DNA of 64,000 nucleotides from Candidatus Xenobia bacterium (GCA_045863235.1 BTUM01000041.1:1-64000); one strand, 5' to 3'; shown: positions 565-54,078, counted from the stretch's first letter. Program-made: numbers and translations. Notes: a model not told the origin generated them from the sequence alone.

Positions 565-2676
565 ATGATCCGCCTGGTCGACAACTATGCCCCGGTCTGG
601 ATGCCGCAGCAGCGGCGCTCGGTCTCCTCCGAGCAACCGCTGGCGCAAGACCTGGTGCACCTTTCGAGCGATCCGGCGCGAACGCCCGAGTTCTTGAAGA
701 CCCTGCGCGACCTGGCGACCGATGTGGCGGTGCGCTCCAACCATGCCAACCTCTGCGCGGCTCTGGGAGCACCCCTCATCGCTGCGCTGGTGCTGGCAGC
801 TCGGGGCGTGGCCCAGAATCCCGTGGCCGCAGCCGCCCTGGGCGACCTGCTGGTCAAGTGGCGCGGCAGCTCGGAGGGCGACGGCTATCACATCGACCGC
901 GGGAAACTTGAAGAGGTGGTTCGGGGCGGCGACTTTCGGGTGGTGGGCAACCGGATCATGACCCCATGCGAGGAAGGCCAGACGGTCGGGTCGTTGGGGC
1001 CCGAGCTGTGGAGGATTTCGCAGCAGGTCGAGCAGGCCGGACGCCAGGACCTGGTGCCCTTCCAGGACCAGTTGGCGCGCCTGACCGAGAGGTTCGACCC
1101 GAGGACGAGCGGCGATACCCTGCACAAGGTTCAAAGGCGCGTGTTGAACGCGCTTCCCGAGCTGGCCACGGAAGACTACCTGGAGCGAGAGCTCAAACCC
1201 GTGCAGAACTCCCTCGCGGCGGTGGGGTCCTTTTACGGACCGTCCCGCATGCTGGACCTCTACCTCGAGGGCCAGCCCAATCGGCTGGACAGCCTCCAAC
1301 TGCTCAGCCACGTCGAGGACGGCGGATTCGTCCCTGAGCAGCGCCAGGTGGACGGCATGGTCAAGCGTCTCGTAGGCGACCTGGAGAACGGAAACGGCCG
1401 GGACTCGGAGTGGACCTTCGCGCTGCTCGACGCAGTGGCTCGTCAGACTCCAGGTTCGGTCAGCATCGAGCAGCGACGGCGCCTGCAGCAAGCCCTGCTC
1501 GAGGGCGGCAAGAAGCACCTGTCGCTGGCCACCTGGCACGGCCCCGTGGGCCGCCTGGCGGCCGCGGACCCCGAGCTGGTTCCCGGCCTGCTGGCCCGCC
1601 AGGACGAGGCGACCGCCCAGGCCCTGCTGCTCTCGGCCCCGCTCGACCAGGAGCAGTGGACCAGGATGCCGGTGGACCCTGACGTTCGCTTTGCCTACGA
1701 CATGGCCGACTTCGCCCGGCAGATCAAGAAGCTGACCCCGCAGGAGGCGCTGACCCTGGTCGAGAGCTTCGATACGGGCCGTTTTGGCCGCGCCTCCGAC
1801 GCCGCCGAGAAACGAGTCCGCAGCATTCTGCTGGCGCACCTGGCTTCCCATGGTGATTATCCGCAATTCGCCCAACTCAAGGATTGGGAAAGTCTGGCTT
1901 TCTATCCCTACCTGACCGAGGGGGTCCGCCAGGGCAGGACGGCCGAGACCATGGCTGAGCTCGACAGCGTGCTGGAGCGCTTGCAGCCTGGCCGGCTCTG
2001 CTATCAGAGCCTGGCCGGCGAGCTGGCCGCCCTGGCGGGACCGAAAGCCACCCTGACCCAGCTGGCCGAGCGCTATCTGGCTCTCCACCAGGGCACCGAC
2101 TTCTATGCCGAGGGCAAGGCCAGTCAGGGTTTGCAGCTCTTTGGGCGCGGGACCGAGGAAGAGTTCCAGGTCGGCCGCGCATGGCTGGAGCCCCTGGCGC
2201 CCAGCCACGAGCTGGTGGAATGCTTGAAGAAACTCAACGCCATGAAAGAAGACTTCCGCCCCGACTGGTCGCCGGCCCTCTTCGGCCGTCTGAACGCGGA
2301 CCTGGAGGCCTTCATGACGCTCCAGACGGCGGGGGAAGCGGGTCTGCCTCGTCTGAACGACCTTCGAAACGTGCGCGCCGGGCAGGCCAACGCAGCCTTT
2401 CCGGCCGCCTGGAGCTACCGGGGAGAGGACTGGGACGGGGCGCTGGCGGGACTGCAGCGACTGTCCTCCGTGACCGGCGAGCAAGGCTTCCTGGGCGCCA
2501 CCGAAACCTACTTCCAGGCCCTGAACGAAGGGGGCAGCGTAGAGCAGGCACTGGATCGGGCCCTTCGCAGACAGATCGCTGGAGCCGTCGAGACCAGTCC
2601 TGTCGCCATCGGCGAGCAGGGTGGGCGAGTGGTGATCGGCGGCTCGCTGCTGCGCCATCGCTCACCGGGCCGTTGA
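565..2676 (+). CDS. hypothetical protein (~703 aa, mostly helical) with N-terminal DLVHLS leader and C-terminal VVIGG..LRHR motif
   Basis: Long ORF. The upstream in-frame extension is only the translated repeat array, so ATG 565 was chosen as the start. Confidence 0.75.
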   Translation: MIRLVDNYAPVWMPQQRRSVSSEQPLAQDLVHLSSDPARTPEFLKTLRDLATDVAVRSNHANLCAALGAPLIAALVLAARGVAQNPVAAAALGDLLVKWRGSSEGDGYHIDRGKLEEVVRGGDFRVVGNRIMTPCEEGQTVGSLGPELWRISQQVEQAGRQDLVPFQDQLARLTERFDPRTSGDTLHKVQRRVLNALPELATEDYLERELKPVQNSLAAVGSFYGPSRMLDLYLEGQPNRLDSLQLLSHVEDGGFVPEQRQVDGMVKRLVGDLENGNGRDSEWTFALLDAVARQTPGSVSIEQRRRLQQALLEGGKKHLSLATWHGPVGRLAAADPELVPGLLARQDEATAQALLLSAPLDQEQWTRMPVDPDVRFAYDMADFARQIKKLTPQEALTLVESFDTGRFGRASDAAEKRVRSILLAHLASHGDYPQFAQLKDWESLAFYPYLTEGVRQGRTAETMAELDSVLERLQPGRLCYQSLAGELAALAGPKATLTQLAERYLALHQGTDFYAEGKASQGLQLFGRGTEEEFQVGRAWLEPLAPSHELVECLKKLNAMKEDFRPDWSPALFGRLNADLEAFMTLQTAGEAGLPRLNDLRNVRAGQANAAFPAAWSYRGEDWDGALAGLQRLSSVTGEQGFLGATETYFQALNEGGSVEQALDRALRRQIAGAVETSPVAIGEQGGRVVIGGSLLRHRSPGR

Positions 2677-2691
2677 GAGTCAATTTCGCCG

Positions 2692-4665
2692 TCAAGGCGT
2701 TCCGGGGCGCTTCCTGAGCACCACCGAGCCCAGCCGGACCCGCGTTTCCTCCTCGGCCACGGCGCCCGATGCGCGCGTCGCAGCCGCCTGCAAGGCGGTC
2801 TCGGTATCCTGGCCCGAGAGGCAGGCGAGCATGAAGCGCTCGAAGACCTCGGGGAACTTCTCCCCGGCCTGCTCATCCAGGGCCAGGAAGAGGCGACTGG
2901 CATCCCCTTCTTGCTCCCGGCCGGCCAGATGGCTCAACAGTGCCTGAAACAGGCTCTCTCGACCGGCCAATCGGGGGAAGACCCGGGGTGCCTGGTGCTC
3001 CTGCCCGTGCGCTTGCAGGCTTTGATAGAGGGTTGCGAAGCGCTGACTGGCTTCAGACAGCGGCTCATCCGGGCGGGCACCAGCCAGCAGGCTCATCAGG
3101 TCCCGCTGGGGGTCGGCGCCCACCCGGGACATCCGATCGGCTGCCCCCTGCACCTCCTCGGTCGACCAGCCCCGCAAGAGAGCCACCGTCGTAGTGGCCG
3201 CCAGTCCCGCTTCCCCGCGCCCCAGGCAGGCCTGGAAGGCCTGACGATAGGCGGCCAGAGCCGCTGGCAGGTCGGAGGCGGCGGCCTCCAGAGCCCGCAA
3301 CTGGGTAGCCACATCCTCCTGGTCGCAAAGGTGAGAGGTGACCAGCAGTGACTCGAGAAGCTCCAGCCGGACCAGGACCGGGCCCGCGCGAGAGAGCTCT
3401 TCGTGCATCAGGGTGCGGGCATCCCGGGGGCTCGAGAGACGGCTGAGGGCAACCAGGTGCGTCAGCCGCTCCTCCCGGGACAGGGCCCAGATGCCCGGTC
3501 CGGGAGGCTTACTCAGAAACTCCACGGTCTCGTCGGCCTCGTTCCAACCCACACCCTCGGCCACCCGAGCCGTCCACCGCAAGCGCTCGAGCAGCTCAGG
3601 GCCCCGCCAACCATGGTCGGTCAAGCCCTCGAAGCTCTGCCACAGGTCCTCAGCCCCATGACGCGCACACAGCTGAGCCAGGGCGGAGCTGGCCTCCTCG
3701 GGGCTGAGCCCGGTGTCCGTGCGGGTGACCTGGCTCAGCAGCTGACTGGCCTGCTCCGGGCTGACACGACGGCCTCGGAGCAGTGGCAGAAAGAAGTTCT
3801 CCAGCAGGCGGCCACGCACACGGTAGTCGCTCAGAGCCTGCTCAAGAGCTTTCCCTGAAGGCTCGGTCAGTGCCCCCAGCACCACTCCGTCCCGCGACAG
3901 AGTGGCCTTCCCCTGGTGGGCCAGCTCATAGAGCTCGGCCGGGTCGGCTCCCACTTCCGCGGAGGCCCGGCCCAGAGCGCGAGCAAAGTCGGGGTCGCTC
4001 ACCGAATCCGCATCGCCGCTGACCCGGTAGAAATCCTCGGCGGCCAGGGCATGGTGGCGCATGGTGCGTGACTGGCCCCCGGGCGGAGTGATCCAGGAGT
4101 AGGAGCCGGTGGTCTGGTCTCGGTAGGCCCTCGCGAGGCTGTGGGTGAAACGGTAGCCGGCCCTTGCGAGGTTGCCCAGAGCCCGAGCCTGGGCCGGGTG
4201 AGCGGTGTCCTCAGGGACCGCCTTTCCCAGCTCCAGAACGTCCAGCGCGGCCAACTGATCCAGATTGCCGAGACGAAAACTCAGGTCCTGGCCGGGCGGG
4301 CGAAGATCCACACCCTTGTCCAGCCGATCCAGCACCTGGTGGCTCTCGAGCTCGAGCTCCCGTCCCCCCCGAAGGAGGCCTTCCAGGAAACCAGGCTCGG
4401 TGGTGTAGCGATAGCCGCGCTGCTGACTCTCCCGGATTGCCTCTTCCAGGGCATGGCGCTGGGCCTGATTCAAGCTCCCGCTCAGCGGGCTGTTGACCAG
4501 CCCGGCTGTCAGGAGGCCGGAGCTGCGCAACGAGCTCCAGAGCCAGCTGCGTGATCCTGATTCGGAGAGCTGGACGGTGTCGTCAGGAAGTGGCGGCCCG
4601 CCGGCCGGAGCCGTTCGAGGAACCTGGTTGAGCGCGAGGGTCTGTCTGAGAGGAGTGATCTGCAT
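2692..4665 (-). CDS. hypothetical protein (657 aa) with N-terminal DTVQLS leader and C-terminal VRLGSVVLRKR motif
   Basis: Long ORF, convergent with the previous gene; TATCCT lies 9 nt upstream of the ATG. Confidence 0.8.
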   Translation of the reverse strand: MQITPLRQTLALNQVPRTAPAGGPPLPDDTVQLSESGSRSWLWSSLRSSGLLTAGLVNSPLSGSLNQAQRHALEEAIRESQQRGYRYTTEPGFLEGLLRGGRELELESHQVLDRLDKGVDLRPPGQDLSFRLGNLDQLAALDVLELGKAVPEDTAHPAQARALGNLARAGYRFTHSLARAYRDQTTGSYSWITPPGGQSRTMRHHALAAEDFYRVSGDADSVSDPDFARALGRASAEVGADPAELYELAHQGKATLSRDGVVLGALTEPSGKALEQALSDYRVRGRLLENFFLPLLRGRRVSPEQASQLLSQVTRTDTGLSPEEASSALAQLCARHGAEDLWQSFEGLTDHGWRGPELLERLRWTARVAEGVGWNEADETVEFLSKPPGPGIWALSREERLTHLVALSRLSSPRDARTLMHEELSRAGPVLVRLELLESLLVTSHLCDQEDVATQLRALEAAASDLPAALAAYRQAFQACLGRGEAGLAATTTVALLRGWSTEEVQGAADRMSRVGADPQRDLMSLLAGARPDEPLSEASQRFATLYQSLQAHGQEHQAPRVFPRLAGRESLFQALLSHLAGREQEGDASRLFLALDEQAGEKFPEVFERFMLACLSGQDTETALQAAATRASGAVAEEETRVRLGSVVLRKRPGTP

Positions 4666-4765
4666 CGCTCACTCAGGATACCCCCCGATCGTCGATGCAC
4701 TGTCTCGGCAGCGTCAGGCGAGGGGAGAGAAGATTGCCGGCTGTTTACGCAACACAGCTTCCCAT

Positions 4766-5638: not shown

Positions 5639-5729
5639 GCCTTCCCTTTCGCTCCGGGTCTGTTTACAACCTGGCAAAGTGGCCGGCGGGCCGGCCAGTC
5701 TATACTGCCAGCCGAGGAGGACTGCCCGC

Positions 5730-6923
5730 ATGCTCACCGCCATCGCCCCGTCCCCGGCCCGGATCCCTGCCTTCGCCGCCGCTGCTCCCCGGTCCGAGCC
5801 GACCGACCGGGTCACCCTGGGCGAGGAGCGGCCCGCTCCCAAGAAGTGGACCATCCTGGTCTACTCGGCCTCCGACAACGACCTCAAGCGGTTCATGCTG
5901 GCCGACCTGGATGAGGCCGAGCGGGTGGGGTCGGACGACCTGACCAACGTGGTGGCCCAGTTCGACCACGGCGGAGGCGAGGGGGCCAAGCGCTACCTCA
6001 TCACCAGGAACAACCAGAGCGGGCTCAACAGCCCTGTGGTGCAGGACATGGGCTCGACCAACATGTCCGACCCGCGCAAGCTGGCCGACTTCATCAAGTG
6101 GGGCATGCAGAAGTACCCGGCCGAGAATTATATGCTGATCATCTCCGACCACGGAGACGGCTGGAAGGGTGCCGGCCAGGACTACTCCCACAACGGTTGG
6201 ATGGGCCTGCCCCAGATCGAAGCAGGCATGAAGGAGGCCCGCCAGGCCACCGGCCGCAAGATCGACGTGCTCGGATTCGACGCATGTCTGATGGCTTCCG
6301 CCGAGGTGGCCCACCAGCTCAAGGACGAAGCCAGTTTCATGGTGGCCTCGGAAGAGGTGGAAGGCGGGGCCGGCTGGCCCTACAACCGCATTCTCAACCC
6401 GGGCATGCTGGCCGACCTGCAGGGCCAGTTGCAGCTGCAAATCGAGCTGACTCCACGCGATGTGTGCCGGCACGTGGTGCGCACCGCCCAGGGCAACCAG
6501 GGCGATCTGCCCACCATGTCGGCGGTGGACCTGTCCAAAGTGGCTGCTCTGACGCAGTCGGTGGACAGCTTTGCCGGGGCCCTCCTGGCCACCGCGGAGG
6601 CTTCCGTGCCCACCCTCAAGAGCCTGGCCGACCGCACCCAGGGATTTACCGACTACAGGGATCTCTATGACTTCGCCGACCGGGTGGCCAAGAGCCGCAT
6701 CAATGACCAGGCCCTGAAGGACGCCGCCCGGCAGGTGACCGCGAGGGTAGGCGAAGCGGTCATCTTCGAGCAGCACTCGAGCCGCTTCCCGGGTGCTCAC
6801 GGGCTGAACATCGAGCTCTCCCCCACCTACGCCCTCGACCAGGAGACCAGCCGTCGCTACTCGGAGATCAAGTTCGCCTCCGACACCCGCTGGGACGAGG
6901 CGGTGCGACGCATTCAGAGCTGA
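5730..6923 (+). CDS. clostripain-family cysteine peptidase (C11), no Sec signal
   Basis: Motifs KWTILVYSASDNDL, LIISDHGDGW (His) and GFDACLM (Cys); RBS GAGGAGG before ATG 5730. Confidence 0.9.
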   Translation: MLTAIAPSPARIPAFAAAAPRSEPTDRVTLGEERPAPKKWTILVYSASDNDLKRFMLADLDEAERVGSDDLTNVVAQFDHGGGEGAKRYLITRNNQSGLNSPVVQDMGSTNMSDPRKLADFIKWGMQKYPAENYMLIISDHGDGWKGAGQDYSHNGWMGLPQIEAGMKEARQATGRKIDVLGFDACLMASAEVAHQLKDEASFMVASEEVEGGAGWPYNRILNPGMLADLQGQLQLQIELTPRDVCRHVVRTAQGNQGDLPTMSAVDLSKVAALTQSVDSFAGALLATAEASVPTLKSLADRTQGFTDYRDLYDFADRVAKSRINDQALKDAARQVTARVGEAVIFEQHSSRFPGAHGLNIELSPTYALDQETSRRYSEIKFASDTRWDEAVRRIQS

Positions 6924-7092
6924 GCGATCAAGGCCAGCAACAGCAAGGTAGGTCCATACCACCAGGCCCACCGAGACCGTCTGGCCGTGGGCAGGAAACT
7001 TCTGGAAGGCAACGACACTACCTGTCATCCCCCGGCGCCAAACTCGTTTCGAAGCGCTCCCAACATGCGCGACGAAGTTCCGAGGAGTCCCC

Positions 7093-10257: not shown

Positions 10258-10362
10258 GGCGCCGCGCGTTGGACACTTCAGAAATTGGCGCGGCGCCGAT
10301 CAACAGATTGTTTACACTCCCGCGCGTTCCAATTCTGAACAGGTCAACGCGCGGGAGTGTAG
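10255..10362 (+). repeat. 108-bp dispersed double-hairpin element, copy 1
   Basis: Near-identical to 30082-30189 and to the reverse complement of 37906-38013; overlaps the addA stop codon. Confidence 0.9.
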
Positions 10363-10445
10363 AGCGAAGCGCAGCGCGAAGAACTTGTTCTGAGCGGCCC
10401 CAGAGTGAAGGGCCCGACTTCTGCTCGCAGCGATCCTGAGTTGCT

Positions 10446-16109: not shown

Positions 16110-16592
16110 ATGCTGAGCAGCGTGCGCAACTTTCTGAACACTCACATCGGGGCTTCCAGCCAGGACTATCAGCGTTCCGGGCCCTCATCCGGACAGGTCG
16201 CCGCCGGGGCAGCCATCGGCGGAGGGCTCCTGGGGATGGGCGTGGGCGCGGCCATCGGCGCCTCCCGCCAGGCCGCCGACGTGGTCACCGTCGAGCAGGT
16301 ACCCTACCCAGAAAGCTATCGCGAGGCGGTGGGCACCCGCACCTCGATGGGTTGCTTCGAGTATCACTACAACTTTGGCAGCGGGGAGTACGAGTATGGC
16401 TACAACCCGCTGTGTGTCGAGACGGTGACCGACTACGAGACGCGCTACACCGGTCGCACGCTCTATAAGGAAGTGCACCACCACAGCGTGGGCTTCCCCA
16501 ACACGATGCTGCAGGGGGCTCTGGTGGGACTGGGTCTGGGCGTGGCCACCGGCGTGGCCGGAGCAGTGCTCTACAACGCGCTCAAGAAGTAG
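16110..16592 (+). CDS. hypothetical protein with two glycine-zipper hydrophobic segments
   Basis: Clean ORF; GAAIGGGLLGMGVGAAIG and GALVGLGLGVATGVAG flank a Tyr-rich loop with two Cys. Confidence 0.75.
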   Translation: MLSSVRNFLNTHIGASSQDYQRSGPSSGQVAAGAAIGGGLLGMGVGAAIGASRQAADVVTVEQVPYPESYREAVGTRTSMGCFEYHYNFGSGEYEYGYNPLCVETVTDYETRYTGRTLYKEVHHHSVGFPNTMLQGALVGLGLGVATGVAGAVLYNALKK

Positions 16593-22788: not shown

Positions 22789-24570
22789 ATGGTAGTAAGC
22801 CCCGCTCTCTTTGCGCGCCCGGTGGCGGCCAGCTCGGACTATGATCGAGCGGTTTCCGCCTTCGTGAGCGAGTCCAACTCGGCCGAAGGGCGCTCGCTCA
22901 AGATGCGGGGCATCCAGCGCCTGCGAGAGCTCAACCCGGCCCTGTCGGCCGAGCACGTGCGAGCCATCGCATCCTTCGTGAACAACTCCACCGGGCTGGA
23001 GGGACGCGGCCTCAAGCTCGACGGCCTGGCCCGGATCATGCAGATCCAGCCCACCCTGACCCCCTCGGCCATCGGCAAGCTGGCTGGAGCGGTGGACGAG
23101 AGCGAAACCCTGGAGGGTCGTCGGGCCAAGTTGCAGGGCTTCCAGAAGCTCTATCAGACCCAGCCCGCCCTCTCTGAGGACGTGCTGGGCGAGATGGGAC
23201 GCCTGGTCTGCGGCTCCAACGGGGTGGAGGGCTACTCCATGAAGTTCGACTACCTGTCGCGCATGCTGAAAGTGCAGCCGAGGCTGTCGGCTGACTTCGT
23301 GCGCCAGCTCAGGCTTCTGGTGGACGAGTCGAACGGAGTCGAGGGCCGACGCTTGAAGATGCAAAACGTGCTGGCCATGCTGGAGAAGCAGCCCGGCTTG
23401 AGTCCGGCCATGCTGCGGGCGACGACCGGCTATGTGAACGAAAGCAACTCGCTGGAGGGCCGAGGCCTGAAGCTGGGTAGCCTGGTGAGCATGCTGGCCA
23501 AAAATCCGGCCCTGGAAGCCGCTCAGGTGGAAGCCCTGGCCTCCGGAGTCAACGCCTGTCCAGGAATGCCATCGCGACGAGCGGCCGTGGCCGGCTACGA
23601 GGCCGCTCTAGAGGCGGCTCCCACCCTGGGGCCCGACGTCCTGCGCGAGATGGGGCGCTTTCTTTCCCAGCCGGGCACCGACGCGGGCCGTACCGAGTAC
23701 ACCCGGATGGCGGTGCAGGTGGTGCAGGGCGACCCCGGTGTGAGCGCCACCACGTTCGGCTACCTGCGCCAGGCTACCGCCGGCGCTTACACGGCCCTGG
23801 ACGGCACGGCCCGGGCTACGCTGGCCTACAACGACCTTCTGATTGCCCGGGGACTTGGGAAACGGCCCGAGGAGCTGGCCACCCTGATCCCTGCCAGCGG
23901 CGCCACCGAAGGCGCCAGTCTGAGCCTGCCCCTGGAGGTGCTCGAGCAACTGCGCAGCCGCCCCGAGCTCGAGCTGTGCCAGCGCAACATCGCTGAAGCC
24001 CGCCAACAGGCCAATCACTTTGAGCAGGCCTTGCTGGGCAGCACCGACCAGGTCATCCAGGCCAACTATGATCGCTACAGCCAGCTCTGGGAGCAGCACC
24101 GCGAGGGTCTGAACGGCAAACTGCAACTGGCCGGGCTGGGCCTGGGAGTGGCGGCGGCGGTGGGCATGCTCTTCATCCCCGAGGTCCGCTCGCTGGCCGC
24201 CATCGGACTCTTTGGCGGAGTCTTCCTGGGCTCGCGACTGGCCAAAAAACCGCTCCAGAAGCTTCAGAACAAGAAGCTTGCCGGGATCATCAAGAGCGAG
24301 ATGGTGCCCGTGCGTGACAGCTGGAAGGCCCGTCAGGCGGCCCAGGAGGCCCAGAAGGTCCGGGTGGAGGCTTACCTGGCCGCCGATCTATGGCAGGCTC
24401 TGAAGACCGATCCCAATCGGATCCCCCCTGGCCAGAACGTGCGCGAGGGGGAAGATGCTGTCGTCATCGGCGGGATCCGCGTGCCCCGGCGCCGCCCCGA
24501 GCTTGACATCGCCGCGCCCCAGGGACCGCAGGGCTTCGACACGGCCAACCCTGGCCAGAGCCCCACCTGA
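22789..24570 (+). CDS. 38-aa repeat protein with C-terminal hydrophobic hairpin and VVIGGIRVPRR motif
   Basis: About 8 tandem 38-aa repeats; TATTCT 7 nt upstream of ATG 22789. Confidence 0.8.
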   Translation: MVVSPALFARPVAASSDYDRAVSAFVSESNSAEGRSLKMRGIQRLRELNPALSAEHVRAIASFVNNSTGLEGRGLKLDGLARIMQIQPTLTPSAIGKLAGAVDESETLEGRRAKLQGFQKLYQTQPALSEDVLGEMGRLVCGSNGVEGYSMKFDYLSRMLKVQPRLSADFVRQLRLLVDESNGVEGRRLKMQNVLAMLEKQPGLSPAMLRATTGYVNESNSLEGRGLKLGSLVSMLAKNPALEAAQVEALASGVNACPGMPSRRAAVAGYEAALEAAPTLGPDVLREMGRFLSQPGTDAGRTEYTRMAVQVVQGDPGVSATTFGYLRQATAGAYTALDGTARATLAYNDLLIARGLGKRPEELATLIPASGATEGASLSLPLEVLEQLRSRPELELCQRNIAEARQQANHFEQALLGSTDQVIQANYDRYSQLWEQHREGLNGKLQLAGLGLGVAAAVGMLFIPEVRSLAAIGLFGGVFLGSRLAKKPLQKLQNKKLAGIIKSEMVPVRDSWKARQAAQEAQKVRVEAYLAADLWQALKTDPNRIPPGQNVREGEDAVVIGGIRVPRRRPELDIAAPQGPQGFDTANPGQSPT

Positions 24571-28724: not shown

Positions 28725-30041
28725 ATGCTGAACCCCCTGCAGAACGGCAACGTTGCCAATCAGGTCTACGGGTTCCTCCCTCAGGCGCAGAGCGGGGCTC
28801 CGGCCCTGCAGGCCCCCCTGGGCGACCAGACGCGCTTTTCGCCCGAGTTGCTCGACCCGATGGGCGTCAGTCCGGTTGCCGACATGAATGGCCTGCTCAA
28901 CGGGCTGCGCGGTCTGACCGAGCCTGACCCTTCCCAGCGCCAGCAGAAGCAACAACCCCAGCAGCCCCGCAGCGCCGAGCAAACCCGCCAGGCCCAGCTC
29001 AAGGGCACCCTGGGCCGAGAAGACAAGCTGGCCGGCAAGCGGCTGCTGGCCGAGCTCGATTCTCAGGAACTGCAACAGATGTACGGCGAGCTCGGTCCCC
29101 TGATGGGGCGGTTGGGAGCGGCTCGTCCCGAAGTGACCTTGCAGGAGGCTGCCGGCATCCACGACGTCTTCAAGGACGACGCCAACGCGGCTCACCCGGT
29201 GGTGGAGTTCCTGTCCAACCGCAAGGACGTGAAGCTGAACGAGACCTTCACCTCGGCCCCCGGCGGCGGGCGTCCCGAGCTCGAGCCCAGCCTTAAGGAC
29301 GAGAACTCGCGCCAGATGCTCATGCTTCGCCGCGACCTCAAACCTCGGGACGCTTCCAAAATGGGCAGCCGTTTCCAGTTTGCCCTGGGCGATCCGATGA
29401 TGGCGGCCGACGCTTACAAGAGCACCGTGCCGATGCTGGCCAAGCGCAACGACATCCACCCCGAGACCATGAGCAACATGATGGACGGCATGGTGCGCAC
29501 CATGGGTGAGCCGGCCGCGGCCCTGCGCACCTTCAAGAGCGGCACCAAGCTGATGGAGGAGCGCGGCAACGTGCAGCCTACCGACGTCAGCCGGTTGCTC
29601 GGGGGCGTGGCCAACCTGAGCAAGAAGGACGGCGGCATGAACCCGGCCCGCGTGGCCAACGCCTTCGAGGACGCCACCAACCTGCTTCGCGAGCAGCCAG
29701 GGCGCAGCATTCACGACGTCATCTCGTTCACCGACATGCTGGGCGGCCCCGGTACTGCAGGCGCGGCCGGTCCGGGAGGGCCGCAGGGCCAGGGCCATCC
29801 AGGGCAGCCGGCGGGAACTCAAGCTCAGGCGGGGCCATCCATCGGCACTCCCTCCATCGGAGGCAAGCGCGACCGTCTGAGCCTGTTCCAGCAAGGCCTT
29901 GCCCTGATGCGCTCGGCACCCGACCTCAACGCCCAGAGCGTGCACGCGCTGGTCACCGGCCAGCCTGCCGCGCCGGCGACTCCCGGCGGGCCAACTCCAA
30001 GGAGTCCGTTCCAGCCCGCCCCCATTCCAGCCGTGTCCTGA
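28725..30041 (+). CDS. hypothetical protein with disordered termini and ~39-aa helical repeats
   Basis: Coding-like ORF; the repeat ML.KR.D[IL].P recurs at 39-aa spacing. Confidence 0.75.
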   Translation: MLNPLQNGNVANQVYGFLPQAQSGAPALQAPLGDQTRFSPELLDPMGVSPVADMNGLLNGLRGLTEPDPSQRQQKQQPQQPRSAEQTRQAQLKGTLGREDKLAGKRLLAELDSQELQQMYGELGPLMGRLGAARPEVTLQEAAGIHDVFKDDANAAHPVVEFLSNRKDVKLNETFTSAPGGGRPELEPSLKDENSRQMLMLRRDLKPRDASKMGSRFQFALGDPMMAADAYKSTVPMLAKRNDIHPETMSNMMDGMVRTMGEPAAALRTFKSGTKLMEERGNVQPTDVSRLLGGVANLSKKDGGMNPARVANAFEDATNLLREQPGRSIHDVISFTDMLGGPGTAGAAGPGGPQGQGHPGQPAGTQAQAGPSIGTPSIGGKRDRLSLFQQGLALMRSAPDLNAQSVHALVTGQPAAPATPGGPTPRSPFQPAPIPAVS

Positions 30042-31587: not shown

Positions 31588-32016
31588 ATGAATCGACGCC
31601 AGTTCAACGCCATGCTGCTCTCAGCCGCCGTGCTGAGCCTGACCGGAGCCGCGCAAGCCAAGGAGCTGGCCCCCGGCCTCAGCGAGGAGATGTTCAAAAC
31701 CCTCGACCCCGTCGTCGAGCGCCTGGTGAAAGCCTACAACGAAGGCAACTGGAAGGCGTTCTACGCTGACTATGCCAAAGCCATGAACGCGCTGGCCACC
31801 GAACAGGCCTTCAACTCCCTCTACACCAACATGTACAAGAAACAGTTCGGCACCATCAAGACCCGCAAGCTGAACACCCAGCGCACCACCATGCCCAGCG
31901 AGATGAACGGGCTGATCGTCTACGACGTCACCTGCAGCAAGAAGAACGGCATCCTGGCCGTCAACTGGATGAAGGAAGATGGGAAGTGGAAGGTTCAGCA
32001 GGTCCAGCTTCAGTAG
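31588..32016 (+). CDS. Tat-exported small protein (NTF2-like fold suspected)
   Basis: MNRRQF twin-arginine signal and AQA cleavage site; RBS GGGAGG. Confidence 0.75.
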   Translation: MNRRQFNAMLLSAAVLSLTGAAQAKELAPGLSEEMFKTLDPVVERLVKAYNEGNWKAFYADYAKAMNALATEQAFNSLYTNMYKKQFGTIKTRKLNTQRTTMPSEMNGLIVYDVTCSKKNGILAVNWMKEDGKWKVQQVQLQ

Positions 32017-35000
32017 CGTCCTGACGGCGCTTCACACGCGCTCCGCCCACCACGATGGCTTTCTCCTCCTCCAGAATGCCGGTGCTGGCGCTCTCTTTCA
32101 CGATGCGCGCCAGGGCCTCGTCCAGGTTGTCGGAGACCAGGGCCGCCGGCAGGCGAGCTACCAGCTGGGCCAGTGACAGCCCCTTGAGCCGGCCGGCCTT
32201 CTCCTCCTCGCGCAGCAAGGCCAGGGCCCGCCAGCCCAGGCCGTTGGGCATGCCGCCCAGAACCGTCAGGGCTTGCTTGCGTGAGTCCAGCGGGGTGCGC
32301 TTGTCGCAGGCCAGCTCCAGCACGTCTTCCATCACTTCCAGGCCGCCCCGGTCGCGGAACAGCTCCTTGCCGACCGGGTCCACCACCATCAGACCGCCTA
32401 CCGAGAAGCCCTCCTTCTCCACGCTGCTGTCGGTCACCAACGTGTAACGCAGCCGTACTGAGCCGCCGGCGTAGTGGGACAGATCGGACTCGAAGGTGGT
32501 CCAGCCCGAGCTACCGGTGTGGCTCTGCAGCTGCTGCCAGTTCACCCCGTCTGCGGAGGCCTCGACCAGGATCCGGTCGTTGCCGCTCTCGGTATCGAAG
32601 CTGGCCTGGTAGCGAAGGCGCGGCTGCTCGACCCCGCGCAGGTCGATGGCCGGACTGGTGAGCGAGCTCTTTTCGTTGGGGCGGTAGTTGCCCGCCGGGC
32701 TGTCAGCCCAGCCGGGACCGGCGGGAGTCTGGACGCGACCCCAGGTCCCTTCGGCCACCCAGGCCCCCACCCGGGCGGTGTTGCTCAGTCCTGCCAGAAT
32801 GCCCAGCGCCTCGCTGTCGAGATCGCTTCCTTCGAGCCGCTGCTGTAGGCGCAGAGCGTCCAGGCCCCCTTCGGCCAGCTGAGCTCCCAGGGCCAGCAAC
32901 TCGGTCTTGCGGGTGCGCTGATCGGCAGGCAGATCCTGCAGCACGAACCACAGCTTGCGGCTATCCTCCCAGCCGGCGTAGTGCACCAGCAGCCCCAGAT
33001 CACGCGCTTTGTCAGGATCAGAGCCGGCCAGGTCCCAGACCTCCAGGGCCTGCCCGGGGTCGCCCAGTCCTTCGGTCAGCATGCTCAAAGTGGCGAGCGT
33101 CTCCTTGAGGGTGGCCTGGTCTTGACCCGGGCGGAAGACCGAGCGCGTCAGCATCTCAAGACCCTCGGCGCGGGTGCCGTGATCCTGCAGGCGCACCTCG
33201 GGCTTGCCGGCCGCGTTGTTCCCCCCGATCGTCAGCTTGCGCAGAGTCATCCCCTCGCGCTCGTTGGACCCGTCCGAGGTCAGGCGAAATCGGACGCGCA
33301 CGCTCTTGTCCCGGTAGGCGGACAGATCGCGCGAATAAGGCTGCATGCCCTGGGTGCCATCGTGGATGGCCAACTCTTTCCAACCGCTGCCATCATCCAC
33401 TTCGACGTAGATGTGGTCGTACTTGTCCTCCAGGGCGTGGCTGGCCTCGTAGGTCAACCGGGCCGTGGCCAGCCCCCTCAGATCCACCTGGCGTGTCTGC
33501 AGGATGTTGGTATCGTTGCTCTTATAGCTCTGATCGGGGCTGTCGTCCATGGAGCCGTCCGGACGCCGCACCCAGCGAGTTGGACCCTCGTAGACCTGAA
33601 AGCTCGTGGCCAGGCTGCTCAGATCGGCGCTCATGGCGGCATCGAAACCGGCCTGCAGCATCTGAGCAGGCAGCTCCGAGCGCAGGGGCGAGCCCAGCGC
33701 CTGGGCCAGTATGCGGGCGCACTGGTAGGCTGCGCCCACCTCGTCGGCGCTGCGTCCGGCCAGCACCAGGTCGGCCTGGCTGACGGCCGCCTCCACGCCC
33801 AGCGCGCTCACCAGGGCGCGCAGCTCGCCCGCGCGCGAGCCGGCCTTCGCCAGCACCGGCTGCAGGGCCAGAGCCTGGCTGGCGCTCACCTCATCGAGGA
33901 GGGCCGCAGCTCCTACCAGAGCGGCGCTCTCCTGGCTCGCAGCCAGTTCGAAAAGGCGCTCGCAAGTCCGGCGGGCCAACTCGGGCTCATCTTGGAAAAC
34001 CTGGTCCTCGCCGGCCGACTGCACGCTGAAGTTGCGGAAGGCCAGGCCTTTGCGCTCACCTGAGCCATCAGTGGTCAAGAGCCAGCGAAGCTGCACCTTC
34101 TGACCGTCGTAGGCGGACATGCTGATGCTCTGTCCGGTCCAGCCGTTGCTGCCTGCGTATTTGTTCAGGTCCTTCCACTCCTGGCCGTCGGTGGAGGCCT
34201 GCAGCTGCACAAAGTCGTACTTGTCCTCGAGCTCCCAACGGGCCTCGAAGCGCAGACTGGTACCCTGGCGGCCGGTCAGGTCGAGGGTGGGCCCCAACAG
34301 GACCTCGCGAGCGTTGTTGGAGTAGGCCGCCAGACCTGGATTGGTGCTCCAAGCCTTCTCGGCCGGATCATAGCCCCAGCTCCCCTGACTCTGCCACCCC
34401 TCCTTTGAAGAGCTGACCAGCAGGCGGTCCAGCGACCTCCTGGCTTCATCGCTCAGCGACCTGACGGTGGTGTAGCTCAGCTCGAGGTCGTCGCTGCGTC
34501 GAGCTCGCGCCAACCGAACGCCCAGATCGTGGGTCTCGACGGCTCGGTTCTTGCGCTCCTCCCAGCTTCCCGCTCCATGGGTCAAGTCGGGCCAGATGGC
34601 GGCCGCGGTACGCGAGCCCAGCTCCTGACTGAGCTTGGAGAGAGCGGTGGCCTGCTCGGGATCGGGGGCGGAGCCCAGCGAGCGCCAGGCCGCCATGCCC
34701 TCGGCAGTGGAGGCATAGCGGCCCAGGAATTCAGCTAGCAAGGCTACGTTCTGACCCGGTCGCTCCAACTCGGTCAACAGCTCATCCAGCTCCCCACCGG
34801 TCCGGTGGGTGAGCAGGGTGCGCTCGCCGGCCGGGCCGCGGGCCGTCAGGGCCAGATTCTGAAATTGAAAACCCTCTTTCTCCACGCTGCCATCGGTTTT
34901 GAGCCGGAAGCGAAGCTCGATGTCCTGATTGACGAAGCTCCGCAGAGAAACCTTGCGGGGAGCGGTGGCGCCGTCGCCGGTGTAGGTCTCGAGCGAGCGC

Positions 35001-36394
35001 CAGTCACCGCCCCGGGGGCGAATCTCCAGGAACACGTGGTCGCGGTCCTTCTCCAGGCTCCAGCCGGCCTCAAAGCTCAGCTCGGCATCCTGGAAGCCCT
35101 GCAGCGAGACCCCCCGGCTTGTCAGGGAGATGTCCTGGTTGGGAGCGTAGGCACCCTTGGGGTTGTCCTTCCAACCGCTGGCATCGCTGGTCCAGGCTCC
35201 CTCGCTCTTCCACTCGGGGCGGGCATTCCTGGCCACCTCGACGGCCTCGGGCGCCAGCACCGCCAACCTTCGGGCCACCTCCAGCTGAGGGAAGCTCTTC
35301 AGGCACTCGAGAAAGCACTCCGGTTTGGGGCTCTGCTCCAATGCCCGGGCAGCCTCCAGGGGCTGAGGGTGGTCTTTGACCGCCTGCAGGCGAGCCGACA
35401 GCGAGGGGAGCTCCTGGCCGGCGCTCTGGGCCAGCGCCTCACGGTACAGCGCCTCGCCGCGGGTGGCTCGATACAGCTCCAGTCGCTCGGCGTAGGGGCG
35501 CTCGCTGCCGTCGGAGGCCAGCAATCGCCAGACCTTGCCGGCCGACTCTGCACCCAACTCGCCGCGCAGCTCCTCGAGGCGTTTCTTCTGCTCGGCCAGA
35601 GCGGCCAAATCGGGAGCCTGGTCGGTCTTCCAGGTCAGCAGGGTCTCGCCGTGCGCCTGCAGGGCCACCTCGGCCGGGTTGCTCCGGTAGGTCGCAAAAG
35701 GATCGCCGCTAGAGAGCCGATAACCCTGCAGACTCTTGAGGTGAGCGGCCAGCTCAGGGCGGCTGAGGTTGTGAGCGGTCCCGGTCTTGAGGAAGACGGC
35801 CAGGGATGCCTCCTCGGGACTGTGCAAGGCTCCCTCGGGAACGATCACCCGCTGACCCGAGGCCAGCCTCTGGTAGGCCTGCCAGGAGGGCAGAGTGTTG
35901 TGGGAGTCATCCCGAAAGCTGACCCCGCTTCGGGCCAGGGCTTGAACCTGCTCGGCCAGCCGGGGTTGTTGCAGGGAGCTCAAGCTGCCCCCGCCGTGAA
36001 AGGCAAAGACCATACCCAGGGTTTCGGCGCTGGTGAGCGGTGCCCAGCTGTGCCCGGGCAACTGGAACTGCACGCGGGTGCCATCCTGAATGTAGCTGGC
36101 CGCCTTCTCACCGGGGGCGTCCTTCCATTTCTCGTTCCAGAAGTCGAGCCCGCGGCCCATGTACTGAAATTTGACGCCCTGAGCGTCCAGCCCCCGTCCC
36201 ATGGCGCCCAGAGTCAGTCCGGTCCCCACCGCGGCCTGGCTGGCCGTGGAAAGGCCGGTAGAGCCCAGGCGAGAGTATGCGGGCTGCGCTCGGCTCAGCT
36301 GCACGCTGTCGCCCGGGCCAGCGGGAGCCAGGGCCGCGTGGGGCCGCGCCGCCTGCTGGCTGACGGTCAGAGAGGAGGACGGAAGGATCCTCAT
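31961..36394 (-). CDS. 1477-aa protein with four immune-inhibitor-A/MAM-like jelly-roll domains, DSVQLS leader and IVVGGARVKRR motif
   Basis: Four copies of W.D.P...Y....L...[IV]DL...LE...D...[VL]E...G..W...LS.Y....V.LRF.L..D.S....G separated by helical linkers. Confidence 0.85.
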   Translation of the reverse strand: MRILPSSSLTVSQQAARPHAALAPAGPGDSVQLSRAQPAYSRLGSTGLSTASQAAVGTGLTLGAMGRGLDAQGVKFQYMGRGLDFWNEKWKDAPGEKAASYIQDGTRVQFQLPGHSWAPLTSAETLGMVFAFHGGGSLSSLQQPRLAEQVQALARSGVSFRDDSHNTLPSWQAYQRLASGQRVIVPEGALHSPEEASLAVFLKTGTAHNLSRPELAAHLKSLQGYRLSSGDPFATYRSNPAEVALQAHGETLLTWKTDQAPDLAALAEQKKRLEELRGELGAESAGKVWRLLASDGSERPYAERLELYRATRGEALYREALAQSAGQELPSLSARLQAVKDHPQPLEAARALEQSPKPECFLECLKSFPQLEVARRLAVLAPEAVEVARNARPEWKSEGAWTSDASGWKDNPKGAYAPNQDISLTSRGVSLQGFQDAELSFEAGWSLEKDRDHVFLEIRPRGGDWRSLETYTGDGATAPRKVSLRSFVNQDIELRFRLKTDGSVEKEGFQFQNLALTARGPAGERTLLTHRTGGELDELLTELERPGQNVALLAEFLGRYASTAEGMAAWRSLGSAPDPEQATALSKLSQELGSRTAAAIWPDLTHGAGSWEERKNRAVETHDLGVRLARARRSDDLELSYTTVRSLSDEARRSLDRLLVSSSKEGWQSQGSWGYDPAEKAWSTNPGLAAYSNNAREVLLGPTLDLTGRQGTSLRFEARWELEDKYDFVQLQASTDGQEWKDLNKYAGSNGWTGQSISMSAYDGQKVQLRWLLTTDGSGERKGLAFRNFSVQSAGEDQVFQDEPELARRTCERLFELAASQESAALVGAAALLDEVSASQALALQPVLAKAGSRAGELRALVSALGVEAAVSQADLVLAGRSADEVGAAYQCARILAQALGSPLRSELPAQMLQAGFDAAMSADLSSLATSFQVYEGPTRWVRRPDGSMDDSPDQSYKSNDTNILQTRQVDLRGLATARLTYEASHALEDKYDHIYVEVDDGSGWKELAIHDGTQGMQPYSRDLSAYRDKSVRVRFRLTSDGSNEREGMTLRKLTIGGNNAAGKPEVRLQDHGTRAEGLEMLTRSVFRPGQDQATLKETLATLSMLTEGLGDPGQALEVWDLAGSDPDKARDLGLLVHYAGWEDSRKLWFVLQDLPADQRTRKTELLALGAQLAEGGLDALRLQQRLEGSDLDSEALGILAGLSNTARVGAWVAEGTWGRVQTPAGPGWADSPAGNYRPNEKSSLTSPAIDLRGVEQPRLRYQASFDTESGNDRILVEASADGVNWQQLQSHTGSSGWTTFESDLSHYAGGSVRLRYTLVTDSSVEKEGFSVGGLMVVDPVGKELFRDRGGLEVMEDVLELACDKRTPLDSRKQALTVLGGMPNGLGWRALALLREEEKAGRLKGLSLAQLVARLPAALVSDNLDEALARIVKESASTGILEEEKAIVVGGARVKRRQDATEAGPAEPSTSHLPSSS

Positions 36395-39685: not shown

Positions 39686-39815
39686 TTGTGCACGGCACAT
39701 TTTGTGCCAGCTCCACGAGCGGCACAAGCGAACGACACTTGCCCGGCCGCGTCGACGAGAGCACCCGGGAACCCCGCCAGGACTGCTCCCCCGGGCGTCA
39801 AAGCCCCCCGCCCAG

Positions 39816-42252: not shown

Positions 42253-42505
42253 CAAGGCCCTCAGGGGATCCCCCCGCGTGTCCGGACGGCAACATGGGGT
42301 TAACAAACGGTTCATCCCCGCTCTGGCTTTGTTCGATGTTCGCTCGCTACCCTGAGGCCATTATGAGGATCGAATTCATATCAAGCGACCCGACGCTGGG
42401 CTGGGAAGTCTCGCCCGCCCGACGCCTGACCATCTTCCTTCTCTGGTGGCGTTTCCACCTGAGCTGACCAGGAACCGGAGAGGCGCCGTCTAATCAGCCC
42501 TCGCC

Positions 42506-50883: not shown

Positions 50884-51005
50884 CTCACCCTCCCGGTCGA
50901 TGCCATCTCCTATCTATGGTAGCAAAAATTCCTCTGCCCGACCGGGTGCAAGTCGGGCAGGCCGGCAGGTTGCCCTCCGATCACGTTAGCCCAATGGCGC
51001 ACCAC

Positions 51006-51039
51006 AAAAAAGGGGCGCTCCTTCGGAGCGCCCCTTTTT
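51006..51039. terminator. bidirectional intrinsic terminator
   Basis: AAAAAA GGGGCGCTCC TTCG GAGCGCCCC TTTTT: GC-rich stem, cUUCGg loop and A/T tails; directly downstream of the S8 gene. Confidence 0.9.
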
Positions 51040-51054
51040 GACCGTCAGCGAGAA

Positions 51055-53181
51055 TCAGCACTCGCGCGGGTCGCCGGCCACCTTCACGTCGTCCACGTAG
51101 ACGCCGTCCTTCTGGAGGCTGCCGTCGGAGCTGAGACGGAAGCGGACCTGGACGGTCTTTCCCTCGTGAGCCGACATGTCGTGCTCGTAGTTCTTCCAGT
51201 CTTCGGTGCCGTCGTAGGAAGCGAGCTCGCTCCAGGTCTGGCCGCCGTCCTCGGTCATCTCGACATGTACCTGGTCGTAACCGGCCTCGGTGTCGAACTT
51301 CATATTGTACGACAGGCGCGGATTCTTGACCGTCGACAGGTCGAGCGCCCGAGAGGTGAGCGAGGTGCTGGCGTTGGCCCCGTAGGATCCTTCCGGCGAG
51401 TCGGTGTAGACCATCCCGCGTCCTTCCACGGCCACCTTGCCCCAACCGGCGTCGGGAGCCCAGTTCTCGCTCTCCTGCTCCATGTCGTCGGCGAAGGCGA
51501 AAGCGGCAGCTTTGGCCCGCGCGGCAGCGGTGACCATGGGCGAGGTGTTGCCCATGTTGTCGGCCACCTTGACGGCGAAGAAGTAGGTCTTGGGCTCCTC
51601 GCTGGTGGGAACCGGCAAAGTCAGCATCTCAGGGGTTCCAGCCGCGCCCGGGGCGGACAGTCCGCTCATCGGGGTGGCCTGATCCCAGCTCACGCCCTGG
51701 TCGCCGTTCTCGGTGATGGGCTTGTCGGAGACGCGCACCTGGTAGCTGGCGGCCTGGCCGGTGTGGCCGTCGTCACCGGTGGCGGTGAAGCCGAGGGTGA
51801 TCGAGGTCGCGCCCAGTCCGGCCACGTGCAGGTCGGCGGGAGCGGCCGGCGGGGTCTCGTCGGTCTCCATGGTGTTGATGGCCGAAACGCGGCCCCCGGA
51901 AACCATCTTGCCCTCGTAGGCGGCGCCCTTGACGGCGGTATTGATCAGGCGCGACTTGATCTGCTCGTTGGTCAGCTCGGGGTTGTTCGAGAGCATCAGC
52001 CCCACCACGCCGGAAACGTGGGGCGTGGCCATCGAGGTGCCGCTCAGACTGCCATACTGGCCGTTGGGCAGGGTGGAGTAGATGTCCACGCCGGGCGCGG
52101 CCACATCCACCGAACGGGCGCCGTAGTTGGAGAAGCGGGCCAGCTTGTCGGTGCGGTCGTGGGCCGCCACGCTGACGATGTTGTCCAGATCGAAGCCGCT
52201 GGGGAAGTGGGGGCGCTGATCGGCGTTCTGGCCGCTGTTGCCCGCCGCGCAGATGTGCAGGGCGGGGTTGGAGCGGAAGGCGTCCTTGAGCGCTTCCGAG
52301 CCGCCGCCGCCGCCCCACGAGTTGGAGGTGACGCGGGCGCCGATGCGACCCGAGTAGATGACGGCCTCGATCGCGTCGGCATAGGTTCCGCCGCCCCCGC
52401 CGTCGAGGAACTTCACGCCCGCCATGGTGGCGTTCCAGTTCACGCCGACCACGCCCTCGCCGTTGTCGCCCTTGGCTCCGATGGTGCCGGCGCAGTGAGT
52501 GCCGTGGCGGTTGTCGTCGAGCGGGTCGCCCCCGCCGTTGATCATGTTGGCGCCGTGGACGTCATCGATGTAGCCGTTGCCGTCGTTGTCGATGCCGTCG
52601 CCGGGGATCTCGCCCGGGTTCGTCCAGACGTTGGCAGCCAGGTCAGGATGGTTGTAGTCGATGCCGGTGTCGATGACCGCGATCAGCGGGCCCTGGCCGT
52701 TGGGAGCGCCGGTGGTGAGGTCCCAGGCGGCCGGAGCGGCCACGTCCACGCCCGGGTTGCCGCTGTTCTTCAGGCCCCAGAGGCGGCTGTCGAGGTCATT
52801 GGGCTCGGCCTGCACCTGGATCTTGTAGTTGGGCTCGGCGTAAGCCACGCCTTCCTGGCCCGAGAGGCGGGCCACGGCCTGCTCGACGGTCTCGCCATCT
52901 TGCAGGGCGAACTGGAACAGCTCGCCGCCGAAGCTCTTCTGCATCGACTCGGGCACGTCGAAGTGCCGGATGGTGCTCAGGCCCATGTCAGCCGCCAGGC
53001 TCTGGGCGTTGGCCAGGCCCACGTCACTCTTGAACTTGACCAGGACCTGTCCGGGCTCATACTGGGGCTTGTCGGCCGGAGCCGCGTCAAAGCGGTCCTG
53101 CGGCTGCGCCGAGGACTGGGCGGCGGCCTGAGGGCGGGTGCTGGAGATCGGGCTGGCCTGGTTGGGGCGAATGGTGTTCAC
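51055..53181 (-). CDS. subtilisin-family (S8) serine protease with FN3-like and C-terminal jelly-roll domains, no Sec signal
   Basis: Catalytic motifs VIDTGID, HGTHCAG and GTSMATPHV; GTG start after AAGGAG. Confidence 0.92.
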   Translation of the reverse strand: MNTIRPNQASPISSTRPQAAAQSSAQPQDRFDAAPADKPQYEPGQVLVKFKSDVGLANAQSLAADMGLSTIRHFDVPESMQKSFGGELFQFALQDGETVEQAVARLSGQEGVAYAEPNYKIQVQAEPNDLDSRLWGLKNSGNPGVDVAAPAAWDLTTGAPNGQGPLIAVIDTGIDYNHPDLAANVWTNPGEIPGDGIDNDGNGYIDDVHGANMINGGGDPLDDNRHGTHCAGTIGAKGDNGEGVVGVNWNATMAGVKFLDGGGGGTYADAIEAVIYSGRIGARVTSNSWGGGGGSEALKDAFRSNPALHICAAGNSGQNADQRPHFPSGFDLDNIVSVAAHDRTDKLARFSNYGARSVDVAAPGVDIYSTLPNGQYGSLSGTSMATPHVSGVVGLMLSNNPELTNEQIKSRLINTAVKGAAYEGKMVSGGRVSAINTMETDETPPAAPADLHVAGLGATSITLGFTATGDDGHTGQAASYQVRVSDKPITENGDQGVSWDQATPMSGLSAPGAAGTPEMLTLPVPTSEEPKTYFFAVKVADNMGNTSPMVTAAARAKAAAFAFADDMEQESENWAPDAGWGKVAVEGRGMVYTDSPEGSYGANASTSLTSRALDLSTVKNPRLSYNMKFDTEAGYDQVHVEMTEDGGQTWSELASYDGTEDWKNYEHDMSAHEGKTVQVRFRLSSDGSLQKDGVYVDDVKVAGDPREC

Positions 53182-53409
53182 GTTGGCACTCCTTCGGTGG
53201 TGTACGAAATGCGGGCGGCGCGTGGCGGTTTTCGAGCGACCACGCGGAGCAGGCATCGGGCTTCTCACCAACCCCCGGGCCCCACGGACCCGGCCTGCGC
53301 ACCACGCAGGTATCCTAACCAGAACATGGAGTTACACGTTTGACCGAATTGTGAACATGAAGATCGGCCATTCAGACTCCTTTCAGACGACCGGATTACG
53401 CTTGAGGGC

Positions 53410-54078
53410 ATGAACGTCACCGCATCCAACCCTGACCGCCTGGGCCGCCCGACTGACCGGGTGCGGGACACGGCCGCCGGGCTGGTGCTCCACCCCGAAG
53501 AGCAGCGCGATGAGCTGAGGGTGATGGCGGCCGGGGTCGAGGCCCTGGGACCGGTGAGCCGGGCCGAGCTCCTCGAAGGGCTTCGGCAGGCCCGCGCAGA
53601 TTGGGGAGAGCAGACTGAGAGCGTGGAGAAGTCTCGCGCCCTGGAGCGCATGCAGGCGGACACCCGGCAGCTCGAGAGTTTACCGGGAGAGAGCTTGTCC
53701 GATCTGACCGGAGCCCTGCTCAGCGCCAACCAGGACCGCCAGGATCGCCTGGGCCTCTTCTGCAAGGCTGGCGTCGGTGTGGCTCTGGGCTCCTTCCTGC
53801 TGACCATGGCAACCGGTCACTGGGTACCGCTGGCCCTGGGAGTGGCGGCGGTAGGAACAGCCGCCACCGCAGCCGTTAAGCGCTACCAGACCCCCGAGCG
53901 GGATACTTTGAGCCGTCTGGCCACCTACGGCGCCATCGCCCAGCAGAAGGCCGCGGCCACGGCCGAGGTGACCAGCCTGGTGGCCGCTCTGGGCGAGAAG
54001 GGCACGCACGGCATTCGCCAGACCCAGAACGGCGTCCAGGTCGGGGGCGTGGTCCTGCGGCGTCGCGGCTCGGAGTGA
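53410..54078 (+). CDS. hypothetical protein with hydrophobic hairpin and C-terminal VQVGGVVLRRR motif
   Basis: Clean ORF with two hydrophobic segments; overlaps the start of the next gene. Confidence 0.75.
   Translation: MNVTASNPDRLGRPTDRVRDTAAGLVLHPEEQRDELRVMAAGVEALGPVSRAELLEGLRQARADWGEQTESVEKSRALERMQADTRQLESLPGESLSDLTGALLSANQDRQDRLGLFCKAGVGVALGSFLLTMATGHWVPLALGVAAVGTAATAAVKRYQTPERDTLSRLATYGAIAQQKAAATAEVTSLVAALGEKGTHGIRQTQNGVQVGGVVLRRRGSE

Follow-up and report, generated by a model that had tools for sequence, protein, structure and literature searches.

Short C-terminal sorting signals are a known kind: the basic tails of type IV secretion system (T4SS) substrates, the C-terminal domain (CTD) of type IX secretion system (T9SS) cargo, PEP-CTERM and the signals of type I secretion systems (T1SS) all mark proteins in this way. 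In flagellar export, chaperones bind the C termini of their substrates and dock on FlhA-C, as set out in parts of PMC8527033, and an intermediate between flagellum and injectisome that retained the rod could only be inferred in the portion of PMC3459982 bearing on it. Here we analysed 64,000 nucleotides from a Candidatus Xenobia bacterium (GCA_045863235.1, BTUM01000041.1:1-64000; hereafter the window), in which five genes encode proteins that share an 18-residue C-terminal motif, the tag. A prediction made from the sequence alone had proposed that the tag docks diverse cargo onto a common export machine or drives co-assembly. We found that the motif is real, far beyond chance, and that it is likely a docking handle for one class of cargo and likely not the export signal itself.

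The genome from which the window comes (G000; 8.36 Mb, 166 contigs, 65.8% GC, 97.6% complete) yields 42,681 open reading frames (ORFs) on six-frame translation. We searched these with a hidden Markov model (HMM) built from the five 18-residue window segments, using a threshold of at least 10 bits and counting a match as C-terminal if it lay no more than 30 residues from the end. The five-seed model gave 108 matches, 105 of them C-terminal, and none in reversed ORFs; with the seed contig removed, 103 matches remained, 100 of which were C-terminal. Iterating the model for five rounds to convergence, with no filter on position, produced 184 matches, of which 176 were C-terminal against approximately 15 expected by chance, and three matches in each of the reversed and shuffled decoy sets. 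The expectations that copies would be numerous genome-wide and enriched at C termini were thus borne out. We removed two of the 184 matches because they lay in ORFs that had not been called as genes, leaving 181 tagged genes. The originally proposed consensus, written as a regular expression, matched 30 times in called genes (27 C-terminal; none in reversed sequences). The iterated consensus is [VI]-x-E-x4-[VL]-x-[VI]-G-G-V-R-[VL]-[RK]-[RK]-R, and upstream of it we found the anticipated helix-compatible segment and a Pro/Gly-rich linker. The protein bodies are unrelated, as had been claimed: the 181 genes fall into 86 BLAST clusters, with ORF lengths from 150 to 1,838 amino acids. A median of two residues follows the tag match genome-wide. 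The tag is not strictly terminal: in seven proteins it lies 170–320 residues before the end, and one of these seven has another copy at the C terminus. In four proteins of this genome (C3:76161, C3:123379, C32:68044 and C135:163) the tag is followed by an appended domain made up of short repeats, Y-[DN]-P-x-x-G.

AlphaFold, given a 114-row tag alignment, predicted a helix followed by a linker and a β-meander of three strands, one face of which is hydrophobic (mean predicted local distance difference test score 79, approximately 90 over the strands; predicted template modelling score 0.41), which agrees with the hairpin or meander suggested originally. A trimer prediction of the tag scored 0.01, which gives no verdict, and was not used as evidence. 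Searches for a known family, in all of which short queries are weak, returned none, in line with the earlier view that the motif belongs to no described family. The best Pfam match among the 114 tag segments had an E value of 0.033, and no family matched more than one member; against NCBIfam, the five window proteins gave only MAM-related matches in gene 4; a PDB sequence search returned no match, Foldseek against PDB with the predicted tag none at E 0.001, VIA-align wide none at Z of at least 2 among 48,161 chains (the 38-residue model is a weak query), and the ESM Atlas no usable match. Against 1.84 billion representative sequences the tag profile, whose shortness limits sensitivity, had 18 matches at E 0.001. 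Derivation from a pyrroloquinoline quinone (PQQ) propeller blade was considered and rejected (HHalign 0.3%). A prior description of the tag was found neither in these libraries nor in the literature searched, which comprised listings and the opening parts of abstracts and did not extend to subscription papers on the phylum.

Most tagged genes share a promoter. The hexamer TTTCAG is enriched upstream of tagged genes (82 of 181, compared with 371 of 6,901 others), and a model of the full element consists of two such repeats with an 11-bp period followed by TAnnnT, mostly 6–7 nucleotides before the start codon, a spacing that implies leaderless transcripts. In fivefold cross-validation the promoter was present at 122 of the 181 tagged genes and at 148 of 6,967 others, and 358 sites genome-wide exceeded 18 bits against five in each decoy. 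The regulon spans approximately 350–400 TTTCAG-repeat sites, many of them leaderless in geometry, and the promoter is conserved in families f1, f2 and f4; 22 of 41 genomes matched a strict form of the pattern, among them 15 of the 16 in family f2, and control patterns had no matches. This strict pattern was not found in genera g8 or g9, both of which carry tags, and the coupling of promoter and tag is therefore incomplete. We take the box layout to resemble OmpR/PhoB or SARP boxes, and no activator could be singled out among the 26 OmpR-type winged helix-turn-helix matches in the genome. Two near-identical 71-residue genes (G000:C133:656-871 and 2618-2833) each have two strong regulon promoters upstream.

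The five tagged window genes, their tags and their promoters are as follows.

522..564, plus strand: promoter of gene 1; tandem box and −10-like element, 16.9 bits (15.7 cross-validated)
565..2676, plus strand: tagged gene 1, 703 amino acids; no Pfam or NCBIfam family; the start at 565 fits the promoter geometry
2608..2661, plus strand: tag of gene 1, a seed HMM segment
2692..4665, minus strand: tagged gene 2, 657 amino acids; Pro-rich leader with D-x-V-x-L
2707..2760, minus strand: tag of gene 2, a seed HMM segment
22748..22788, plus strand: promoter of gene 3, 26.2 bits; the −10-like element ends a few nucleotides before the ATG, a leaderless geometry
22789..24570, plus strand: tagged gene 3, 593 amino acids; repeats and a hydrophobic hairpin
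24439..24492, plus strand: tag of gene 3, first row of the alignment used for fold prediction; predicted fold of one helix and three strands
31961..36394, minus strand: tagged gene 4, 1477 amino acids; four InhA-like MAM (jelly-roll) domains
32024..32077, minus strand: tag of gene 4, a seed HMM segment
36395..36435, minus strand: promoter of gene 4, 21.0 bits
53369..53409, plus strand: promoter of gene 5, 31.8 bits
53410..54078, plus strand: tagged gene 5, 222 amino acids; hydrophobic hairpin
54013..54066, plus strand: tag of gene 5, a seed HMM segment

All five 18-residue segments lie where they had been placed, except that the third ends at 24492 and not at 24495; 4, 4, 25, 20 and 3 residues follow them, in window order. 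The regulon promoter precedes four of the five genes, and upstream of gene 2 no box was found (model score −13.9). Gene 3 has a tagged homologue in genome G040, and gene 5 has ten homologues, one of them named Ca. Eremiobacterota. One contig from an RNA run, derived from a 92% identical relative, starts exactly at the gene 5 ATG, a weak hint of a leaderless transcript, as such contigs do not show expression. At least half of the sequence words of gene 5 are present in four sequencing runs, which are sludge, digester and bioreactor metagenomes.

Tagged proteins commonly begin with a leader, recognizable by composition only, in which the first 30 residues are enriched in Pro and Ser and depleted of Leu. 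Neither this leader nor the promoter had featured in the original prediction. Among the 122 tagged genes with the promoter, 77 encode Ile or Val at position 3, and D-x-[VFIL]-x-[LIPF] occurs in 35% compared with 9% of other genes. The 148 untagged promoter genes mostly lack the tag but have a similar leader, which is why we think that the export signal is probably N-terminal. By a crude test, a Sec-like N-terminal hydrophobic stretch was found in none of the 122 tagged promoter genes, in 9 of the 148 untagged promoter genes and in 1,616 of 6,819 other genes, and a regular expression for the twin-arginine (Tat) motif matched none of the 122, consistent with the claim that the tagged proteins have neither signal. 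The two cargo classes differ in content. Domain scans (E 1e-6) covered 125 of the 181 tagged proteins and 97 untagged promoter proteins (of 148), chosen by region density; six of the 97 had weak tags and were set aside, leaving 91. Catalytic Pfam domains were present in 1 of the 125 tagged proteins and in 27 of the 91 untagged ones (p 1e-10), the latter being nucleases, peptidases, phosphatases, acyltransferases and similar enzymes. Beta-propellers accounted for 20 of the 125 tagged proteins and MAM domains were found in 5, and 39 of the 122 tagged promoter proteins have one or two hydrophobic helices. The leader is therefore the common denominator of the regulon's cargo, and the tag marks its non-enzymatic subset. 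No gene family was convincingly enriched among 601 neighbours as a dedicated chaperone or immunity gene (best p 6e-4, 3 of 3, uncorrected). Untagged window genes with a similar leader by eye lie at 5730-6923 (+), 28725-30041 (+), 51055-53181 (−) and 16110-16592 (+); a subtilase with a MAM domain is among the leader-bearing untagged window genes.

A candidate export machine is encoded on contig C27, where a flagellar basal-body and export cluster comprises FlgBC, FliEFG(x2)HIJ, FliK, FliMN(x2)OPQR and FlhBA. The export apparatus is complete in this genome (FlhAB, FliPQR, FliI, FliH and FliJ), FlgF/G/J-like genes lie on contig C74, and flagellin, MotB, FlgD and FliD were not found in the assembly. 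The gate protein scored 815 bits with the FlhA profile, over its cut-off, and 617 bits with SctV, under its cut-off. In a FastTree phylogeny of 94 sequences, Xenobia-type FlhAs formed one clade (support 1.0) among flagellar FlhAs and apart from SctV, with midpoint rooting and no clade test. Close orthologues of this FlhA occur throughout the order, some FlhA match was present in all 41 genomes, and eight relatives that encode flagellin possess an additional FlhA, more distant than the first (43–48% identical). In the f2 genomes G013, G009, G011, G027, G005, G015, G021 and G029, the main flhA match is in two pieces approximately 100 bases apart (residues to about 350 and from about 362), with one stop each noted in G005 and G021, possibly an insertion or a split gene. 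Five stand-alone FlhA-C paralogues are encoded in the source genome (C80:28012, C3:26973, C1:377631, C106 and C107) and are also present in tag-negative genera; one is fused to an FlhB-like N terminus and two to FliG_N domains.

Downstream of flhA (G000:C27:54348-57476) lie three identical 81-residue pilin-like genes and a 473-residue protein ending in the same domain. One of the three is preceded by the regulon promoter (C27:56299, 22.7 bits), and the 81-residue genes are syntenic in G006 and G030. The 81-residue protein has nine matches in the source genome and occurs in 43 of 201 phylum genomes, and was not found in genus g4 with this query. It resembles HrpA/HrpE pilins by ESM features (0.88–0.91); likeness of 0.90–0.91 falls to clusters in which 23–24% of members carry PF09589, and shuffled proteins reach 0.9 in 4–10% of cases, and we treat the pilin likeness as a lead only. 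An acidic, helical 148-residue protein (G000:C27:53833-54279), also found in G006, G030 and G007 and with five paralogues in the source genome, adjoins the pilin genes and is possibly a pilin chaperone.

We then compared relatives, which are not independent of one another. In a survey of 201 phylum genomes, in which the best 37 candidates at most were scored per genome, 13 were tag-positive, one of them by a single unchecked match; all 13 were among the 43 genomes with the pilin-like gene, and none was among the 158 without it. The basic tag model found 101–148 matches per genome in genus g1 (among the best 150 scored), 3–15 in g8, g9 and G040, and none in family f2 or in genus g5. Propeller homologues in G013 end in an acidic version of the tag. 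An acidic model built from 21 such tags gave 38 and 40 matches in the two genomes of g5, whereas g2 and g4 had no more than one weak match each, those checked being non-terminal. The acidic and basic profiles are homologous (HHalign 93.6%, E 2e-7). Tags also occur outside the class, in G058 and G069 (one locus each checked). The source genome has homologues of 31 of 45 tagged proteins from relatives, and 29 of these 31 homologues are tagged. No other C-terminal motif emerged on promoter-led genes of G013, G007 and G017, where 20 loci and 19 first ORFs, some of them probably wrongly picked, gave no HMM match and nothing common by eye. We discarded 46 weak tag matches in G037, as the eight loci checked include repeated non-terminal sequence. 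A sequence present dozens of times in that genome, frequently at the ends of contigs, resembles the tag when read in one frame, although it is not C-terminal; it is probably a repeat or an insertion sequence end.

The mean tag charge is +2.0 in the source genome (165 tags), approximately 0 in g8, g9 and f4, and −4.8 in g5 (21 tags). The seeds of the g5 model were two acidic tags, and the mean acidity there may be overstated for that reason, though the basic model found no tags in g5. A proteome-wide effect was rejected as the source of the acidic tags; the aligned cargo bodies are unshifted (−3.9 per 100 residues in the source genome and −4.2 in g5). A concerted change of charge over many genes points to one shared partner.

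Together, these data suggest a model in which approximately 180 mostly co-regulated, non-enzymatic proteins would be exported by way of their N-terminal leader, with a type III machine of flagellar origin as the route, and in which the tag would dock this cargo onto one shared, lineage-specific partner. We place that partner inside the producer as an adaptor dedicated to sorting, in the role of the flagellar export chaperones that grip substrate C termini, and it would route recognition and membrane-inserting proteins apart from hydrolytic enzymes. Export by the flagellum-derived apparatus through the leader is probable, in our judgement, and so, separately, is binding of the tag to a common partner. 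The complete account, with its adaptor, is the best explanation we have, held tentatively and at somewhat less than even confidence, and the adaptor step is its weakest. Of the original proposal, the link to an export machine stands through co-regulation and co-occurrence. The tag as a primary export signal does not, because the 148 leader genes with the same promoter are mostly untagged, entire machine-bearing genera lack the tag and appended domains are tolerated.

Several observations weigh against this model. The flagellar operon has no strong promoter box, the best scoring 11.9 bits upstream of flgB; the chaperones CesT, FlgN and FliS were not found in the source genome; and the 81-residue protein has no Pfam or PDB match. 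The export machine occurs without the tag in genera g2, g3, g4, g6 and g7, and neither the core machine proteins nor the FlhA-C paralogues changed in charge in a way that would complement the acidic tags, the mean acidity of which may itself be inflated by the seeding noted above. Propeller, MAM, CUB and F5/8 domains in the cargo suggest that the tag could act after export. On a wider and more doubtful view, part of the Eremiobacterota may have turned the flagellum into an injectisome-like machine independently of the known non-flagellar type III secretion system (NF-T3SS). Rod and gate would have been kept and a Hrp-like pilin would replace filament and motor, with at least 300 cargo proteins under a two-address code, an N-terminal leader and a C-terminal docking meander, that parts prey- or host-recognition proteins from lytic enzymes. 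In PMC9259500, a predatory lifestyle is proposed for the marine family Ca. Eudoremicrobiaceae.

An alternative possibility is that type III export takes place and the tag acts afterwards, in the manner of a dockerin, clipping recognition proteins to a scaffold such as a pilus, a tip or the cell surface, or to a factor of the prey or host. Binding folds and hydrophobic helices abound in the tagged cargo, domains appended after the tag are tolerated, no classical chaperone was found in the source genome and the export machine showed no counterpart of the charge switch. Cohesin–dockerin pairing is likewise species-specific. A scan of internally repetitive proteins of at least 450 residues in the source genome, however, revealed no obvious scaffold. 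We consider this alternative less likely than the sorting-adaptor model, although it comes close behind because neither a chaperone nor a complementary machine protein was found.

A further possibility is a separate, unrecognized secretion route for which the tag serves as the primary export signal, the leader being incidental. The near-terminal position of the tag, its basic tail (as in T4SS signals) and the lack of detected Sec and Tat signals would fit, and a machine of unknown type may be involved. Searches for markers of known systems found none of VirB4 (PF03135; VirD4/DotL not searched), TssC of type VI or WXG100 of type VII secretion systems in the source genome; PrtD of T1SS exceeded its cut-off in 0 of 44 genomes and likewise in no control genome (250 of 510 bits at best in the source genome; HlyB-type not searched). 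A search of five genomes for the tail tube of extracellular contractile injection systems (PF06841) gave no match but was uninformative, as the controls gave none either. The two full-length secretins lie in type II secretion system (T2SS) and type IV pilus loci, beside a third weak match, and T2SS cargo needs Sec or Tat. As the tagged proteins bear the same leader as untagged regulon members, the tag has internal copies and the basic tail is not conserved in g5, such a route appears improbable. Equally improbable is a foldon-like self-association cap that oligomerizes the preceding helix with no need of an outside partner: the order of helix, linker and meander with one hydrophobic face would suit it, as would a tag whose first half is acidic (−0.9) and whose second half is basic (+2.9) in the source genome, but the concerted shift of all sampled g5 tags to approximately −5 is hard to square with independent self-pairing, and tags of that charge would repel each other.

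Returning to the sorting-adaptor model, we compared the system with those already described. Like T4SS tails, the T9SS CTD, PEP-CTERM and T1SS signals, the tag is a single short signature found at the C termini of many unrelated proteins within a genome. Unlike them, it has no NCBIfam or Pfam match, contains no transmembrane anchor and reverses its charge between genera, and no Sec signal or T4SS or T1SS marker was found; the net positive tail of T4SS signals is not conserved (basic in g1, acidic in g5), and the N-terminal Sec or Tat signal required by T9SS CTD, PEP-CTERM and T2SS cargo was detected in 0 of 122 proteins by the crude hydrophobicity test and Tat expression. Dockerin modules of cellulosomes are also small terminal modules on diverse bodies with lineage-specific pairing, whereas the tag has no sequence or fold match to them, sits on non-enzymatic cargo lacking signal peptides and has no scaffold that we could find. 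The genus-wide reversal of charge offers a ready swap test for finding the partner, and tag and promoter together provide a sequence-based inventory of the likely secretome, approximately 300–400 genes, of an uncultured lineage.

Late flagellar substrates (FlgN–FlgK/L, FliS–FliC and FliT–FliD), as far as they are covered in parts of PMC8527033, have in common with this system a flagellar-type gate and a second, C-terminal address on a subset of cargo. They differ in that they are few and structural, present disordered regions and have a chaperone each, whereas here approximately 180 unrelated proteins have a predicted β-meander in common, and searches of the source genome revealed neither FlgN nor FliS. 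In the literature searched we found no description of a common C-terminal address on so many type III-like substrates. The NF-T3SS with a Hrp pilus (PMC3459982) is similar in its non-motile export apparatus, small pilin-like subunit and large leader-bearing regulon with one promoter box. Here, by contrast, CesT was not found, both full-length secretins lie within loci for T2SS and type IV pili, the FlhA clade falls among flagellar FlhAs apart from SctV (midpoint root, no formal test), and the rod, FliE and FliG are kept. If our model is true, this apparatus would represent an extant stage in the passage from flagellum to injectisome, one that has kept its rod.

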